64,000 nt of DNA from Escherichia phage EC_OE_11, in the sequence record OQ108497.1; one strand, written 5' to 3'. A program made the position numbers and the translations under genes. Below are positions 3,570-25,555 of the stretch, in pieces (the stretch's first letter is position 1; each line of letters begins with the position of its first letter). Below the pieces are notes generated by a model, which had not been told where the DNA came from, searched no databases, and saw only the letters and a program-made list of their open reading frames with translations.

Positions 3570-4544
3570 TTAAAGACTTTCAATAACTTGACGACGCAGT
3601 TCATTGGCATCTGCAAGATTATAATTAAGACGAACGTGTTCTGCAAGCATCATACCACGATCTTCTGTGTATCTAGGGTTTCTCATTAGCTTAACAACTT
3701 CATAATGCCAAGATGCTTTAGAGTCTGCATAGATAACAGCCTTTGCATCTACCGGATTGAAGTACGGCAGCACAGGAGAACAGATAATAGGAAGACCCTT
3801 TGCACCTGCTTCCAAAATCTTCAAATTGCTTTTACAATTGTTGAAGTCGTTATCTACCAGAGGAGCAATTGCAATACTGTGACCGTCATACACAGACATA
3901 TACTCACCTAAATTTTTAATAGCTGGTTTATACTGTGCATTTGGAATTTTACGTTTTACTTTAACCCACTCCGCAGTAGTTAGATACTGACTATTATTTC
4001 CAACAGGTGCAGAAGGATACACTTCATACCCTGCAATTGTCAATAGTGTATCATCAAATGTATTAGCTACAAGAGATAAATCAGGCTCATGGCTTGCTCC
4101 TCCAGCCCAAATAATAGGTGTGTCAGAATAACGGTCTTTTGTCAAAGTAAATTGACCTTCGTCGTAAGGTAGTGCGTTTCTAATAACGACAACATTACGA
4201 TTTAAATGACGAATTTTGTAAGCTAGGTATTCTGTTGTTACTGTAACAACATCTGCTAACTTAACCATCTCTACAATAGTCTTTGAATGATTAGTAAATA
4301 CGCCAGCCATATAATGTTCAGGATTAAGTGAATAAAAGTCATCTAAATCAACAATAATCTTAACACCTTGTGCCTTCAGGCGTTTAACTTCGTCTGCCCC
4401 ATGAGAATACACTCTATTAAAAACTAAAACGTCTTTCTTAGGTTTAAACGTATTTCCAGCAAATGGCATTACAATACGATGGTAATCACAACCACTGCCT
4501 AACTTATTATCACACTTAAGTACAGGAGTATTAGGATTTACCAT
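3570..4544 (-). CDS. glycosyltransferase, GT-B-like (paralog 2)
   Basis: Same KSNLKILEAGAKGLP motif and shared N-terminal CD(Y/F)HRI motif; start moved to ATG at 4544 with GAGGAGG SD. Confidence 0.55.
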   Translation of the reverse strand: MVNPNTPVLKCDNKLGSGCDYHRIVMPFAGNTFKPKKDVLVFNRVYSHGADEVKRLKAQGVKIIVDLDDFYSLNPEHYMAGVFTNHSKTIVEMVKLADVVTVTTEYLAYKIRHLNRNVVVIRNALPYDEGQFTLTKDRYSDTPIIWAGGASHEPDLSLVANTFDDTLLTIAGYEVYPSAPVGNNSQYLTTAEWVKVKRKIPNAQYKPAIKNLGEYMSVYDGHSIAIAPLVDNDFNNCKSNLKILEAGAKGLPIICSPVLPYFNPVDAKAVIYADSKASWHYEVVKLMRNPRYTEDRGMMLAEHVRLNYNLADANELRRQVIESL

Positions 4545-5217
4545 ATTTTTGAGCCTCCTCATAAGAGATAAAAGTTTTACCATTGCGAAGATCCTCCAGT
4601 GATTGTTTATATTGTTCCCAGTTTACACCAATCCCCTGTTCTTTCTCTTCTTTTGACAGATTCGCAAAAGGTAAAGGATTGTCTCCAAACACATCGTCAG
4701 GATGGATAAACGCCATAATTCGAATAGGACATGGTACGCCTGGAATACCTCGGTTCAAACCTGCCAGCGGAACGCGCTGAATCCACTCTGCATCTTCATA
4801 CCCATAACCGTGGGTGTATGAGCGGAAATAGCCAGCTTTCTCAATAACTGCACGGGAATACATACCAAACTGGCACATCCCTAGTTCCCAAATAACCACT
4901 TCTCCTTCAATACCTTTTACTTTATCTTTAAAGTATTCAGGCATACCAAAGAAATCCCAACCATTTTCTTTTGCCTGTTTTACAAAATATGTTTCCCAAC
5001 CTGGAACAACAGGATAACAATCATCATCAAAAATAAACCAGTAGTCATACCCTTCATCATAAAACTTTTTCATCAGTTCATTACGGGCATATGCAACACC
5101 TTTTCGTTCCCGATCATACTGCACAACAAAAGTAGCATTAGGATCAGTCACAAGATAATCTTTAAGAGGACGCTTACCTACAGTAATAACACCAACACCG
5201 ATTTTTGTATTTTCCAA
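4531..5217 (-). CDS. glycosyltransferase, GT-A-like (DxD motif)
   Basis: WFIFDDDCYP DxD-type motif, 228 aa. Confidence 0.5.
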   Translation of the reverse strand: MENTKIGVGVITVGKRPLKDYLVTDPNATFVVQYDRERKGVAYARNELMKKFYDEGYDYWFIFDDDCYPVVPGWETYFVKQAKENGWDFFGMPEYFKDKVKGIEGEVVIWELGMCQFGMYSRAVIEKAGYFRSYTHGYGYEDAEWIQRVPLAGLNRGIPGVPCPIRIMAFIHPDDVFGDNPLPFANLSKEEKEQGIGVNWEQYKQSLEDLRNGKTFISYEEAQKYGKS

Positions 5218-21094: not shown

Positions 21095-22045
21095 TTAGTC
21101 AAGGTTTTTGGTAATACGTGTACAACCGTCAGAAGTCAAACCGTCAACTTGAGTTTCCCAAGTACCATGAATATTTCGGAACAATGTTGTTACACCTTTT
21201 GGTTCATTAATAATGATTGCCATAACAAGTTTAGGATCGATAACAGACATAATCTTTTCCTCAATACCCTCTGTAATAACGTTATTGCGCACAATATTAA
21301 TTGCATCTTCTTGTACAGTAAGAACACTTACGTTCTTAAGAGTATATACCTGCTGTGTAGTGTAAATGATACGAACATAACTTACAGAACGAGTAGGCAC
21401 AGGTTTACGCGGTCGGCGAAAACGTGGTTTTGGTGAAGATTCAGTTTTACTTTCATCTTTTGAATAATACTCCTCAAACAGTTTAGTAAATGTTTTTACA
21501 TCAACTACAAACCGATCTTTCCGATATGGAGAATTCTTATGTGCACCATTAATACCACTGTTTTCATCGAAGAAAGTAATGTTTTCTTCAGTTGAATACA
21601 TTAGATAATGATCTGCATTGTTCCAATGTGGTTGTGGACAACGAGAATTACAAACGGAAAGCAGATAATTAATATTTTCTTTCGTGGCCTCAGTATCCAG
21701 GAAACACGTATTATGCACAGTCAGTTGTACTTTTTCAGCCATATCCTTTTCTTTATCCCCATTGGTAAGATATTCAGTACGAAGAATTTCCAGAAAATTT
21801 TCAGGTGTTACTTCCATAAATGTATATTCAGGATGAAGTTCCATATATTCAAATCCACAACCATCTAATTGCTGTAGAAAGTTAGGGTAGAAGAACAAAT
21901 CATTAACACTGTGAATCAGATCATTGATTTCTGCTTCAGTTGTGTAACCAAAACTTTTGTGAATTGCCTCGTTAAGAGTATGCAGGATACCCATCTCTTC
22001 TGCTGCTTTTTTAACTTCCAGTTTATTAGCGTAAAATGCAATCAT
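21095..22045 (-). CDS. hypothetical protein
   Basis: 316-aa ORF. Confidence 0.55.
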   Translation of the reverse strand: MIAFYANKLEVKKAAEEMGILHTLNEAIHKSFGYTTEAEINDLIHSVNDLFFYPNFLQQLDGCGFEYMELHPEYTFMEVTPENFLEILRTEYLTNGDKEKDMAEKVQLTVHNTCFLDTEATKENINYLLSVCNSRCPQPHWNNADHYLMYSTEENITFFDENSGINGAHKNSPYRKDRFVVDVKTFTKLFEEYYSKDESKTESSPKPRFRRPRKPVPTRSVSYVRIIYTTQQVYTLKNVSVLTVQEDAINIVRNNVITEGIEEKIMSVIDPKLVMAIIINEPKGVTTLFRNIHGTWETQVDGLTSDGCTRITKNLD

Positions 22046-22062: not shown

Positions 22063-22497
22063 TTAGTTTAAAATTTCTTTTGCAATGGTAGAAGCAAGTT
22101 TTCCATCATATTGATTCGGATACTCTGCTTTAAGGTGTTTCATCATATCTGGCATTTTCTTGCCTGTCAAGGCAAATTCTTCAGCAATAGCTCGAAGATC
22201 ATCTTCAGATAGCATTTCTGGCAAATATTTTTCCAGAGCGGTGATATCACGCATAGCTCGCTCACATTTGCTAATGGAGGCATTAACTTTCTTAAGTGAG
22301 TCTAGTTCCTCTTTAGCGTGTGCAATACCAATCTTAACAATGTTAATCATAATATCGTCTTCTGATTTGTTTAGATTTGCCTTTTGAGTACGAGCAAGGT
22401 CAAACTCACCAATAATATTAGTTAACAAAGCAAAAGCACCCTTATCGGTTGTACGTGCTAAGATACGATCTGCTTTCATTTGTGTCACAATAGACAT
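22063..22497 (-). CDS. GatB/YqeY-domain protein
   Basis: 144 aa with YqeY-like pattern (EKYLPEMLSEDDL...DGKLAS...KEIL). Confidence 0.6.
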   Translation of the reverse strand: MSIVTQMKADRILARTTDKGAFALLTNIIGEFDLARTQKANLNKSEDDIMINIVKIGIAHAKEELDSLKKVNASISKCERAMRDITALEKYLPEMLSEDDLRAIAEEFALTGKKMPDMMKHLKAEYPNQYDGKLASTIAKEILN

Positions 22498-22509: not shown

Positions 22510-23082
22510 TTATTTGCTAATGCTTTGAGTTTTGTTTACAACACGGTTTATTGCCAGTGAAGCCCTAGGCTCTGCAATACCTGTTGCATAGATATAAGGA
22601 TGACCTTTTGGAGACTCCCTCATACCGAATGAACCTAATTCTAAACCATATTCATCCTCTACGTCAACCCCAATATTAGTGGGTACTAAATATGTTTTAA
22701 CTCCATAATAAGTAGAGAAGAAACAGCGCATAGCGTTAGCATACTCTTCAATTGTAGCATCAGGGTAGAACTCAATCAACTCCAATTTCAAGAAAATATT
22801 AAAATGGGTATCATCTAAATTTTCTTCTGTACGGTAACATGGTGTTAGTGCCATATACGGATTACCTGCTGCAAATTCAAAACCATCCTTCTCCATTTGC
22901 AGGAAAGATTGTTCTGCACTAGCTACATAGTATTTACCGTTAGGATGCCCTAATGGGCGATCCTCTTTATTTTCTGGTAGTGTGTACGCCAGTATATCAG
23001 TATCCACGAGATATGGAACTTCTAACATTTGTGCAAATCGACCATAGTAATCAATAGCTTGAGCTATTACTGCAACATTCAT
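22510..23082 (-). CDS. class II aminoacyl-tRNA-synthetase-like catalytic core protein (tentative)
   Basis: Motif-2-like CYRTEENLDDTHFNIFLKLELIEF; only 190 aa, so a truncated ligase-like domain. Confidence 0.35.
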   Translation of the reverse strand: MNVAVIAQAIDYYGRFAQMLEVPYLVDTDILAYTLPENKEDRPLGHPNGKYYVASAEQSFLQMEKDGFEFAAGNPYMALTPCYRTEENLDDTHFNIFLKLELIEFYPDATIEEYANAMRCFFSTYYGVKTYLVPTNIGVDVEDEYGLELGSFGMRESPKGHPYIYATGIAEPRASLAINRVVNKTQSISK

Positions 23083-23330
23083 GATCGACCTCCGTTGCGG
23101 AATGCACGTTTAGTAATGTTTGACATAGTGATCAAATCTTGAAGCGTCATATCAGGAAAATGCTGTTCAAGAACACCCTCAACAGCGCCTACAATATCTG
23201 ATAACTCAATAAGTTGCATCAGCTTGCAATCTTGATCAATAGCATCTTGAAGTTCATAAAGCTCTTCTTGAATCTTAGCAACAGAACCATATTCCTCTTT
23301 GCTAATCTCCTTCAAATGATACCCTGCCAC
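23079..23330 (-). CDS. MazG-like nucleotide pyrophosphohydrolase (small), tentative
   Basis: 83 aa with EExxELxDA-type acidic helix motif. Confidence 0.4.
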   Translation of the reverse strand: MAGYHLKEISKEEYGSVAKIQEELYELQDAIDQDCKLMQLIELSDIVGAVEGVLEQHFPDMTLQDLITMSNITKRAFRNGGRS

Positions 23331-23340
23331 TTTAACCCCC

Positions 23341-25077
23341 TTAGTTTACCAGTTTATTTATGTCTGGTAAAAGATTTATTTCACCTAAAAAATCACCTTC
23401 ACCTTCCTCTAGCCAACTCTCATATGCTTGTGCATGATTATAGTTACCATCAAAAGACTCTGCAACAAATTTTTCTACAGTTTTTCGAGATGTGCCAGCG
23501 CCAAATACACCAAGTTTAATACCATTGATCGGTAAAGTGGTGCTTGTAGGTACTTTCTCTGTTGCAACACGGTTGATATCTATAATCTCCTGTACGGTTG
23601 TGTTCCATTGTAAGCATTTAACACAACGGGTATGCGCTACATACAGTAGGTTTCGCTCTGCCTCTTCTAGTCCTACCCACTCACCAGTCTTTTTATCATA
23701 GTTGGAAGGAAAATCATTAGCAACAATAACCTGATCCCACTCCAAACCTTTAGACTTATGTGCTGTAGTCAATGTGACTTTTGCTGTAGGAGAATTTCTA
23801 TGCGTTCTAAGTGTATGTGCTATAGTGTTTGCCTTACCAGAAACTACAATGTTTAACAAGCGTTTAGCATCTGGATCAGCCTCTGCACACTCGACAAATT
23901 CATTCCAGTCTGCGTAAGGTAATACAGTTTCATGTTTTACTTTCTCAATATCTCCTCTCCGAAGAGCATTAACACTATCTACCATAGAGATAAAATCCCT
24001 GGTATCTACGTTAATAATAATTTCTTCCCCATCTGCAATACGATCCATTGCCTCCATAAGCAAGGTTAAATTCTTGCGAAAGATGATGGTGTAAGGTTTT
24101 GTATAGTCTACAACATCTGATTTGTAGCTACCTACTACAGTATCAAAGCCTTTACCAACCAAAGGATGACGCAAAGGTTCTTTATCACTTAAAATCATAT
24201 TCGCAATGTTTGCCACTTTGGGGCCAAAACGGAAGCAAGCAGTTAATGGAAGCTCTGCCCCATATGTAGAGGTTTCCTTCATCATATTTTGGCTTCCACG
24301 GAACTGGTAGATGCTCTGATATTCATCCCCCACCACCACTACTTGTTTTGCAGATTTAGCATTTCGCAGAATAGACAAGAATGCAGGGTTAACATCCTGG
24401 AATTCATCCCCAAAAATAATGTCATAACCAAGATCAGCACCTGATAACTCAAACAATTTTACATAGGTGTCATGAGTCATCAAAGTATCTGTGTTAGGAT
24501 CAATGCGCTCTCGCCACAATTGTTTTGCATACTTAACTACTTCTGTAATTAGTTTGTGTTCGTTAATACCTTTTCTTTTAATATCTGCAAGATGTACACT
24601 AGGAAAATGTTTACGGCTGATAAAAGGATCATCCGAAAATTCAAACTTACCTACGGTTTGCTTGATCATTAAACCAATCATAGCACGAGTTAAAAGTGTT
24701 TTCCCTCGTTTATCAATAAGATTATTAATCTTGAATTTCTTTGCTATCTCGCTACCTGTACCTGCAACGTTAACATACTGTCCTTCTGGTCGTGACAGTT
24801 TTGCACGTAAACGATGATCCAGGAATTGATAGCAAATGGAATGCAATGTACGGCATTCTACATTTGGTGGCATCTTACGCCGTGCTTCTTCTGCCATGCT
24901 TTTATTGAAAGCTAAGTAAAGAATGCGATCTTCTGTACTGTTAGCCAGCAAATAAAGTGTTGACGTTTTGCCTGACCCAGATTTAGCTTGGATAGTTAAA
25001 AAGCGATGATCTGGAAAAGCCTCCTTAATAGCTGTTTGCTCTTCTGTTGGAGTAAAACTCAACTCTTTCTTAGCCAT
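23341..25077 (-). CDS. UvrD/PcrA-like SF1 DNA helicase
   Basis: Walker A AKSGSGKTST, DEFQD, C-terminal TAHKSKGLEWDQV; start moved to ATG at 25077 with AGAGAGG SD. Confidence 0.75.
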   Translation of the reverse strand: MAKKELSFTPTEEQTAIKEAFPDHRFLTIQAKSGSGKTSTLYLLANSTEDRILYLAFNKSMAEEARRKMPPNVECRTLHSICYQFLDHRLRAKLSRPEGQYVNVAGTGSEIAKKFKINNLIDKRGKTLLTRAMIGLMIKQTVGKFEFSDDPFISRKHFPSVHLADIKRKGINEHKLITEVVKYAKQLWRERIDPNTDTLMTHDTYVKLFELSGADLGYDIIFGDEFQDVNPAFLSILRNAKSAKQVVVVGDEYQSIYQFRGSQNMMKETSTYGAELPLTACFRFGPKVANIANMILSDKEPLRHPLVGKGFDTVVGSYKSDVVDYTKPYTIIFRKNLTLLMEAMDRIADGEEIIINVDTRDFISMVDSVNALRRGDIEKVKHETVLPYADWNEFVECAEADPDAKRLLNIVVSGKANTIAHTLRTHRNSPTAKVTLTTAHKSKGLEWDQVIVANDFPSNYDKKTGEWVGLEEAERNLLYVAHTRCVKCLQWNTTVQEIIDINRVATEKVPTSTTLPINGIKLGVFGAGTSRKTVEKFVAESFDGNYNHAQAYESWLEEGEGDFLGEINLLPDINKLVN

Positions 25078-25078
25078 T

Positions 25079-25555
25079 TCAACCTCTCTTAATTTGTTTA
25101 ACAAGCATAGGAACAAAATCTCGTTTTAAAATTTGTTCAATAATGTGATCAGGTAGCTGTTGGAAATTATAATTAAAAGCTACTGTTTCACCTTTAGGTG
25201 TTTCTACTCGCACATATAACATGTTGCGAAGTTTATCCACTTGTGCTGTATATTCTAAACCACGTAATTGATGCATTGCAAACATCAAATCATCAGTTTC
25301 AGTTTGGAATCTATCCCTTGTCTGCATCAAGGATAAGGCAAAAGGTAGATTTTCCCTAAGAGCCACCTTCTTAGGCACTAGTGAAGGGAAATACTCCCCA
25401 ATAACTTCCTGTGTAAGCTGAATACACTCTTTTTCAAGCTGGTTTTGTTCCTTGAGTTCACAAACACTTTTTTGTAAAGTGTTAACCTCTTTTTGCAAAG
25501 CTGCTAGTTGAGCACTTAACTTTCTTTTTTGATTACGACCAAAACGTTTAGACAT
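25079..25555 (-). CDS. hypothetical protein (coiled-coil N-terminus)
   Basis: 158-aa ORF. Confidence 0.5.
   Translation of the reverse strand: MSKRFGRNQKRKLSAQLAALQKEVNTLQKSVCELKEQNQLEKECIQLTQEVIGEYFPSLVPKKVALRENLPFALSLMQTRDRFQTETDDLMFAMHQLRGLEYTAQVDKLRNMLYVRVETPKGETVAFNYNFQQLPDHIIEQILKRDFVPMLVKQIKRG

Follow-up and report, generated by a model that had tools for sequence, protein, structure and literature searches.

Truncated paralogues of the aminoacyl-tRNA synthetases (aaRSs) have a catalytic core without the anticodon- or tRNA-binding domain, and reuse the adenylate chemistry for a new acceptor (PMC9437257). The aa:[carrier protein] (aa:CP) ligases (Bll0957, PDB 3mey) are cores that resemble seryl-tRNA synthetase (SerRS) and that acylate a carrier protein encoded next door; they derive from SerRS of the methanogen type (PMC9437257). 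Reviews of synthetase paralogues, PMC9437257 included, list SerRS2, SLIMP and the aa:CP ligases under SerRS, and nothing like the two-gene module described here. This module was studied in Escherichia phage EC_OE_11 (sequence record OQ108497.1), in a stretch of 64,000 nucleotides (nt) that is called the window below. It consists of a gene for a 190-amino-acid (aa) protein of class II aaRS type, designated aaRS-like, and of an adjacent gene for an 83-aa protein that resembles MazG and HisE. The phage is a phi92-like E. coli myovirus: over the window, its identity to phages of this kind (Justusliebigvirus: PATM, EmilieFrey, alia and others) is 98-99%.

A SerRS-type catalytic core of 190 amino acids

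The open reading frame (ORF) lies where the original prediction had placed it. The gene and the segments discussed below are as follows.

22510..23082, minus strand: aaRS-like gene, an ORF of 190 aa with an ATG start, encoding a minimal class II (SerRS-type) catalytic-core protein.
23005..23022, minus strand: motif 1 strand EVPYLV, residues 21-26 including P23, with a VPYLV counterpart in E. coli SerRS.
22903..22926, minus strand: VASAEQSF loop, residues 53-60, counterpart of the T-A-E loop that precedes motif 2 in SerRS (PTAEVPL aligned).
22768..22839, minus strand: motif 2, CYRTEENLDDTHFNIFLKLELIEF, residues 82-105, with the R-x-E element, a shortened loop and F-x-K-x-E.
22618..22641, minus strand: ELGSFGMR strand, residues 148-155, proposed equivalent of the SerRS E-I-S-S-C-S...R block (metal/ATP site).
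22558..22590, minus strand: motif 3, YATGIAEPRAS, residues 165-175, carrying the predicted ATP-binding arginine.

A profile made from 36 sequences of the aaRS-like family was compared with the PDB. SerRS of Aquifex came first (2dq3, E 5e-5), followed by AspRS, eukaryotic SerRS and PylRS; AsnRS was also recovered, and all matches were class II enzymes. Alignment of the family to E. coli SerRS by hhalign gave a probability of 89% (E 2e-6), and the extended alignment mapped residues 2-190 to residues 168-414 of the E. coli protein. The original prediction, which had proposed a class II core and had named the failure of profile or structure comparison to detect this fold as its refutation, is upheld by these two E values.

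In the hhalign alignment, VPYLV of motif 1 is paired with an identical VPYLV in E. coli SerRS, the SAEQSF loop with TAEVPL, and the motif 2 element TPCYRTE...IFLKLE with TPCFRSE...QFDKVE (HQFDKVE), the loop of the family being 6 residues shorter. In motif 3, YATGIAEPR is paired without a gap with LNGSGLAVGR(T). The elements [ST]AE, TPC[FY]R-E, F-K-E and [ST]G-A--R aligned with both the E. coli and the Aquifex enzymes. Three of the four blocks of the SerRS active-site signature aligned convincingly; we infer the pairing of the fourth, E-L-G-S with E-I-S-S, from strand order only, because the confidence of hhalign was low in that region. The strand order in the predicted model of the aaRS-like protein agrees with that of SerRS.

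The protein has the antiparallel beta-sheet catalytic fold that defines the class II superfamily, and it carries the three class II motifs, with the conserved proline of motif 1 and the arginines of motif 2 (R84) and motif 3 (R173). On three independent lines of evidence it is a class II catalytic core of the SerRS type; it descends from SerRS and is predicted to work like it.

Residue conservation was calculated from 383 unique homologues. S55, E57, R84, F97, K99 and E101 are 100% invariant; C82, E148, G150, S151, T167 and R173 are conserved at 99.7%, P172 at 99.5% and D140 at 99% or more. Conservation is lower at Q58 (98%), R155 (96%) and P23 (92%). The search for conserved ATP-binding arginines thus returned R84 (motif 2, 100%) and R173 (motif 3, 99.7%), and the segment CYRTEENLDDTHFNIFLKLELIEF, singled out by the original prediction for its likeness to motif 2, is confirmed as such by its invariant R84, F97, K99 and E101 and by its alignment with TPCFRSE...FDKVE of E. 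coli SerRS. Because the catalytic residues are 99.5-100% invariant, the family shows the pattern of an active enzyme, as predicted from conservation, rather than that of a relic or of a decayed pseudo-synthetase.

The family is large. Homologues of the aaRS-like protein were found by tblastn in 272 phage records, from phages of Escherichia, Acinetobacter, Caulobacter, Brevundimonas, Microcystis, Campylobacter, Pectobacterium, Cronobacter, Vibrio and other hosts. At a clustering level of 50% identity, an exhaustive profile search returned 1592 cluster representatives, of which 1074 had E < 1e-30, and nearly all were 175-200 aa long. The 190-aa ORF is a true conserved gene and not a chance ORF. 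The protein starts at the equivalent of SerRS residue 168, and the lengths in the family, 178-196 aa (5th-75th percentile), leave no room for the coiled-coil arm. The remark that the protein is too short for a synthetase was therefore justified: only residues 168-414 of SerRS are covered, and the N-terminal tRNA-binding arm is absent.

Existing labels name the protein a synthetase in conflicting ways. It matches PHROG 4806 ('histidyl tRNA synthetase') end to end (E 5e-71), and deposited homologues are called 'putative seryl-tRNA synthetase', 'histidyl tRNA synthetase', 'putative tRNA synthetase' or 'hypothetical protein'. A Pfam scan of the aaRS-like protein gave tRNA-synt_2d alone, at E 0.13, and did not reach the tRNA-synt_2b model; a scan of NCBIfam, serS included, gave no match at E ≤ 1. 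Full-text literature searches for a functional study of the family returned annotation-level mentions only, the papers that name the gene carry on the synthetase label, and the HIDEN-SEQ supplements hold no named entry for any homologue. An identity with HisRS or HisZ, as implied by the PHROG label, was rejected: the family profile recovered neither of them even at E ≤ 10, and the protein has no anticodon-binding or other extra domain. HisRS and HisZ are fold neighbours only, ranked below SerRS. The evidence says that the gene product, as far as its motifs and domain content predict, cannot be a canonical seryl- or histidyl-tRNA synthetase.

A full-length class I synthetase (471 aa, tRNA-synt_1/1g, MetRS-like) is encoded about 8 kb upstream of the module in a 291-kb phage contig (L087:888-2303); true synthetases and the mini-core therefore coexist in some jumbo phages.

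The MazG/HisE-like partner and the gene neighbourhood

The gene directly upstream of the aaRS-like gene encodes the 83-aa protein, and both proteins are acidic, with an isoelectric point (pI) of 4.6. Its features are the following.

23079..23330, minus strand: MazG/HisE-like partner gene, GTG start, 83 aa, directly upstream; PHROG 6408, E 2e-43.
23079..23093, minus strand: translational-coupling junction, with GGAGG (23089-23093), a 6-nt spacer and ATGA, in which the partner TGA overlaps the aaRS-like ATG.
23253..23267, minus strand: acidic motif E22-E23-x-x-E26 of the partner, invariant, in register with MazG EExxE and with the 1vmg alignment.
23196..23207, minus strand: acidic motif E42-x-x-D45 of the partner, with E42 and D45 invariant and S44 being S, A or C.

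The same overlap of 4 nt between the partner stop and the aaRS-like start was seen again at many loci. Neighbourhoods were examined at 84 loci seeded from the aaRS-like gene, 80 of them from IMG/VR. The partner gene was immediately upstream in 50, immediately downstream in 12, within about 1.4 kb in 13, and fused to the aaRS-like gene in 6, which include the MaMV-DH01 gene. It was apparently absent from three loci, one of which (L067) was rescued by a more sensitive search, and a possible remnant was found in a second; the partner is thus adjacent or fused in 82-83 of the 84 loci. In the reverse test, seeded from the small protein, an aaRS-like gene was present within 1.5 kb in 78 of 80 loci, and within 60 nt in 53. 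Context was also inspected in four distant phages, Acinetobacter Konradin, Cronobacter CR3, Caulobacter CcrC3 and Microcystis MaMV-DH01: in three of the four, a small or MazG-annotated gene lies directly upstream, and its protein is 41-48% identical to the 83-aa protein of the window.

Among the 309 family proteins that were retrieved, 20 are fusions, and in each of them the small domain follows the aaRS-like domain; the fusion clusters first retrieved (P0060-P0076) share only about 30-38% identity with the MaMV-DH01 query. The AlphaFold model of a fusion had a predicted local distance difference test score (pLDDT) of 95.4 and a predicted template-modelling score (pTM) of 0.84 across both domains, which suggests that the two domains may hold a fixed arrangement. 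The aaRS-like and MazG-like proteins are almost obligate partners across more than 150 phage loci, and are sometimes fused.

Other arrangements of the two domains were observed. Tandem small-small proteins of 154-166 aa (P0310-P0313, metagenomic) give two full-length matches each to the hidden Markov model; these tandem duplications of the 83-aa domain within one polypeptide suggest that the free partner acts as a homodimer. Konradin gp118 (L001:3357-3980) and its counterparts at L024, L041 and L043 consist of a MazG-like domain with a conserved C-terminal extension of about 125 aa; this extension, found in T4-like Acinetobacter phages, had no match in Pfam or PHROG. In four aaRS-like proteins (P0194, P0198, P0203 and P0251), the MazG-like fusion is replaced by short Cys-rich C-terminal tails (CxxC...CxxC) that are zinc-ribbon-like.

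The partner is a probable MazG/HisE-type protein, only probable because the profile evidence is consistent yet weak. In 36 diverse members, Y4, H5, G15, K19, E22, E23, E26, E42, D45, T73, F77, G80 and R82 are invariant, and the EExxE...ExxD motif is retained in the fusion proteins. These residues include the signature K-x-x-E-E-x-x-E...E-x-x-D, through which the all-alpha MazG/HisE NTP pyrophosphohydrolases bind metal. The partner profile matched MazG-like 1vmg and HisE 2a7w weakly in the PDB (E 0.3-0.75), several GenBank submitters independently labelled the protein MazG-like or PRA-PH-like, and the small domain shows three long helices in the fusion model. A fold search with the whole fusion model returned class II cores only, and nothing that matched the small domain.

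An acyl or peptidyl carrier protein was considered for the partner and rejected. Many members have A or C in place of S44 of the ELSD sequence, the acidic metal motif is invariant, and a Pfam scan of the partner gave no PP-binding match; the lack of conservation of this serine rules out a phosphopantetheinyl carrier protein.

In 6 distinct loci, one of them a prophage-like region of a Mesorhizobium chromosome, a conserved third domain, about 190 aa long, forms the N-terminal part of a fusion with the MazG-like domain, and the fusion gene always abuts the aaRS-like gene.

L038:5070-5744; L049:5175-5744; L054:5052-5597; L050:6567-7166; L148 ~4395-5000; L086:9196-10014: cupin-like fusions.

Invariant residues of this His-rich domain are H43, W45, H59-D60-H61 and H137, and it is probably a 3-His cupin. 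Its PHROG matches, phrog_4784 (unknown function) and a weak one labelled 'cysteine dioxygenase', are in keeping with such a cupin; Pfam and PDB sequences gave no match.

The original prediction had placed the gene between YqeY-like and MazG-like genes and had proposed an analysis of co-occurrence. Both flanks are as described in the window, and the MazG-like gene proved to be a near-obligate partner in both directions of the test; the YqeY association was not conserved.

22063..22497, minus strand: YqeY-like gene, downstream flank (context only); Pfam YqeY, E 6e-7, above gathering score.

The YqeY-like gene adjoins the module in only 2 of the 84 loci, the phi92-like L005 and L006, and is missing at the module in all four of Konradin, CR3, CcrC3 and MaMV-DH01. 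YqeY adjacency is a lineage-specific accident, and the idea that YqeY is a functional partner, forming a split enzyme with its tRNA-binding domain, was rejected on these counts. Clustering of all neighbouring ORFs revealed no third conserved gene, none being present in more than 9 of the 84 loci. The commonest neighbours were the two below, each within 6 kb of the module at 9 loci; NAMPT was present at 5 loci.

L054:7893-8981 and 8 other loci: RlaP-family Pol-beta nucleotidyltransferase ('RNA repair pathway'), PF10127, E 3e-17.
L007:2900-3268 and 8 other loci: DUF4326 protein, E 7e-21.

Several observations were made on the rest of the window. A UvrD/Rep-type helicase gene (23341-25116, minus strand) lies beside the module and is free of insertion; in close relatives (JohannJBalmer, PD114, ECGD1, W22, PHB05 and others), the helicase gene contains an insertion of about 1 kb, annotated as an intein in JohannJBalmer, and in these records a 4.2-kb query matches in two pieces over about 5.24 kb. 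A 316-aa protein is encoded between NrdD and the YqeY-like gene (21095-22045, minus strand); it matches phrog_15930 'ribonucleotide reductase' (E 6e-182) and has no Pfam domain at all, and this label looks doubtful. All ORFs examined at 19-26 kb are on the minus strand. The GC skew flips from negative to positive at about 30 kb and from positive to negative at about 60 kb, which suggests switches in the direction of transcription or replication, and a local G+C peak of 0.41-0.43 is found at 36-40 kb.

Possible activities of the pair

The reading that we favour, with a probability of roughly 40%, is that the pair is a conserved phage-borne two-component enzyme that activates a small amino acid for an acceptor other than a canonically recognised tRNA. 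The aaRS-like protein would be the catalytic subunit A, a near-minimal SerRS-derived core that keeps motifs 1-3 and a SerRS-type pocket; by alignment, it is without the tRNA-binding arm and part of the motif 2 loop. Subunit A would convert a small alpha-amino acid and ATP to aminoacyl-AMP and pyrophosphate (PPi). The amino acid would most likely be serine or a close analogue, because the positions aligned with the Ser-contacting residues of SerRS are invariant.

Subunit B, the MazG-like protein, would cleave an alpha-beta phosphoanhydride bond. It might remove PPi, make an acceptor of the nucleoside monophosphate type from a nucleoside triphosphate (NTP), or trim an aminoacylated NTP. T. maritima MazG is described, in a paper that cites the original work, as having both NTP-pyrophosphohydrolase and pyrophosphatase activity; PPi removal by subunit B is possible because MazG proteins can have the latter. 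The activated amino acid would then be transferred to an acceptor, most probably a nucleotide or another small molecule, and the cupin-like third domain of some lineages fits such metabolite chemistry. The two subunits would probably assemble as an A2B2 complex, since class II cores dimerise via motif 1 and tandem B-B proteins exist. The suggestion of the original prediction, an amino-acid ligase modifying a protein or a nucleotide, is plausible.

Several results weigh against this two-component enzyme. The assignment of serine comes from sequence equivalences. On the side of the partner, Pfam PRA-PH was matched weakly by 33 of 36 members (best E 5e-4, under the gathering score); hhalign with E. 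coli MazG gave the right register but was not significant (E 0.063), and hhalign with E. coli HisIE was not significant either (E 0.76). Finally, tRNA genes are notably frequent near the module. Of 101 lineages (70%-identity clusters), 24 (about 24%) have a tRNA gene at a distance of 5 kb or less and 14 have one at 1 kb or less, counts that stand without a whole-genome baseline, and in several lineages the module sits within a tRNA array, which favours a tRNA-directed role. Before de-replication, tRNA genes were found within 6 kb at 19 of the 84 loci.

Two alternatives are kept alive by this tRNA-array context. In the first, the aaRS-like protein is a true, extremely reduced SerRS that charges tRNA-Ser of the host or phage, or tRNAs generally, the small subunit replacing the missing arm. 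The SerRS-type active-site signature, with its residues aligned to Ser-contacting positions, the proximity of tRNA genes (5 kb or less) seen in about 24% of lineages, and the GenBank and PHROG labels all speak for it. We nevertheless consider it unlikely: the coiled-coil arm is absent and the motif 2 loop is shortened, Pfam and NCBIfam synthetase models are not reached, and the signature of the partner (pI 4.6) is that of a hydrolase-type acidic metal site and not of RNA binding. Moreover, no tRNA is near the module in about 76% of lineages, the 64-kb window contains no tRNA gene, and tRNA-Ser is not enriched near the module, being no commoner there than tRNA-Gln or tRNA-His (10 lineages each). 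The cupin fusions also fit a reduced SerRS poorly. Some 4.5 kb downstream of one module, ARAGORN called a tRNA with a CUA anticodon ('tRNA-Pyl', amber-suppressor-type; L056:10956-11030) that belongs to a small cluster of tRNA genes.

The second alternative is repair of the tRNA 3' end, or counter-defence. Toxins of the CapRel type and toxSAS pyrophosphorylate the CCA end of tRNAs. The core would dock the CCA end (A76) and the MazG-like subunit would remove a blocking group, for example the 3'-pyrophosphate left by toxSAS/CapRel-type toxins, after which the core may re-acylate or protect the end. This would agree with the pyrophosphohydrolase type of the partner, with the tRNA-array context in several independent lineages and with the RlaP-family 'RNA repair' gene within 6 kb at 9 loci. 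In one viral contig, a gene for a phage transfer-messenger RNA (tmRNA; L060:4111-4503, tag ANDETFGETALAA) precedes the module by about 1.2 kb, within a tRNA array, and its position beside the module is a further point in favour of repair. This alternative is a little less probable than a reduced SerRS. The amino-acid-binding residues are strictly invariant, which a mere docking module would not need. In addition, neither protein has a conserved basic surface motif outside its active site, the RlaP association is weak (9 of 84 loci), and a very broad host range suggests a housekeeping-type role over a defence-specific one. PADLOC defence models matched neither the aaRS-like protein, the partner nor the fusion, and no anti-defence family was matched.

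Class II synthetases such as LysU make diadenosine tetraphosphate (Ap4A). The pair might similarly synthesise and hydrolyse an Ap4A-type dinucleoside polyphosphate or nucleotide signal: the amino acid would serve as a cofactor, a second NTP would attack aminoacyl-AMP, and the MazG-like subunit would shape or degrade the product. PMC9437257 makes mention of LysU. The core keeps its ATP- and amino-acid-binding residues, the tRNA-binding apparatus is absent, and the core is physically coupled to an NTP-pyrophosphohydrolase-type domain, as this proposal would have it. To make and to hydrolyse one type of bond within a single polypeptide looks futile unless regulated, however, and the gene context has no pointers to signalling, so that we regard such a pair as improbable. 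About as improbable, or slightly more so, is an AsnA-like amidoligase or amino-acid biosynthetic enzyme, encoded by an auxiliary metabolic gene, in which ammonia or an amine would attack the acyl-adenylate. A non-catalytic regulatory pseudo-synthetase like HisZ or SLIMP, modulating the MazG/HisE-like enzyme or a host protein, is hardly credible: both ATP-binding arginines, the motif 2 F/K/E and the E-x-G-S block are 99.7-100% invariant, unlike those of degenerate pseudo-enzymes, and the family profile does not recover HisRS or HisZ.

A broader form of the two-component enzyme, which we hold to be doubtful, is that the pair represents an unrecognised aaRS-derived class of about 270 residues, two-subunit or fused and found mainly in large phages, that yields an aminoacyl-nucleotide or another amino-acid conjugate and has one of the smallest activating class II cores. 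This class would extend to at least 1,500 clusters at 50% identity, and its conjugate would be a new phage metabolite, a modified nucleotide precursor or a signal.

Comparison with known systems

The assignment to a SerRS-type fold is already implicit in databases, because PHROG and GenBank labels and papers already use the synthetase name. What is new here is the obligate MazG/HisE-like partner with the fusions, the strict conservation of both predicted catalytic centres, and the subset that carries a cupin-like domain. In hundreds of phage genomes and several papers, the gene figures as a working seryl- or histidyl-tRNA synthetase; given the near-constant pairing with the MazG-like gene, this label misnames half of a putative two-part enzyme. 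Minimal amino-acid activation has so far been approached mainly with engineered 'urzymes', and a natural class II core of about 180 residues with all catalytic residues provides a ready test of the minimum that activation needs. The reviews of synthetase paralogues mentioned above describe no adenylate-forming core that is strictly paired with a MazG/HisE-type domain, and a comparative survey of jumbo phages leaves the module unmentioned. The pairing hints at unknown nucleotide, amino-acid or tRNA biochemistry in phages, mainly large ones, of many bacterial phyla.

Compared with SerRS of the bacterial type (class IIa), the aaRS-like protein has the same motif 1 VPYLV, [ST]AE loop, TPC[FY]R-E, F-K-E and motif 3 [ST]G-A--R. 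It differs by the absence of the N-terminal coiled-coil arm, with which SerRS holds the long variable arm of tRNA-Ser. Relative to SerRS 168-414, it lacks about 58 residues, the 6-residue deletion in the motif 2 loop included, and the synthetase models of Pfam and NCBIfam are not reached. Its MazG/HisE-like partner is obligate, whereas SerRS has none.

The partner shares with the MazG/HisE family the K-x-x-E-E-x-x-E...E-x-x-D pattern, a helical domain, and tandem versions as in MazG. It is much smaller (83 aa) and under the Pfam threshold, has extra invariant GYH and T-K-R-A-F-x-x-G-x-R motifs, and is always coupled to a class II core.

In contrast with the aa:CP ligases, the neighbour here is not a carrier protein: the ELSD serine varies, and E42 and D45 are invariant within a MazG-type motif. 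The aaRS-like core is also about 100 aa shorter than these ligases, and its signatures are those of bacterial SerRS. The resemblance to HisZ and HisE is probably coincidental, since HisZ is catalytically dead whereas the aaRS-like family keeps every catalytic residue; the sequence affinity of the family is to SerRS and not to HisRS, and the partner of HisZ is HisG, not HisE. EpmA/PoxA (EF-P lysylation), GluQRS/YadB (queuosine glutamylation) and AsnA embody the same concept as the aaRS-like core.

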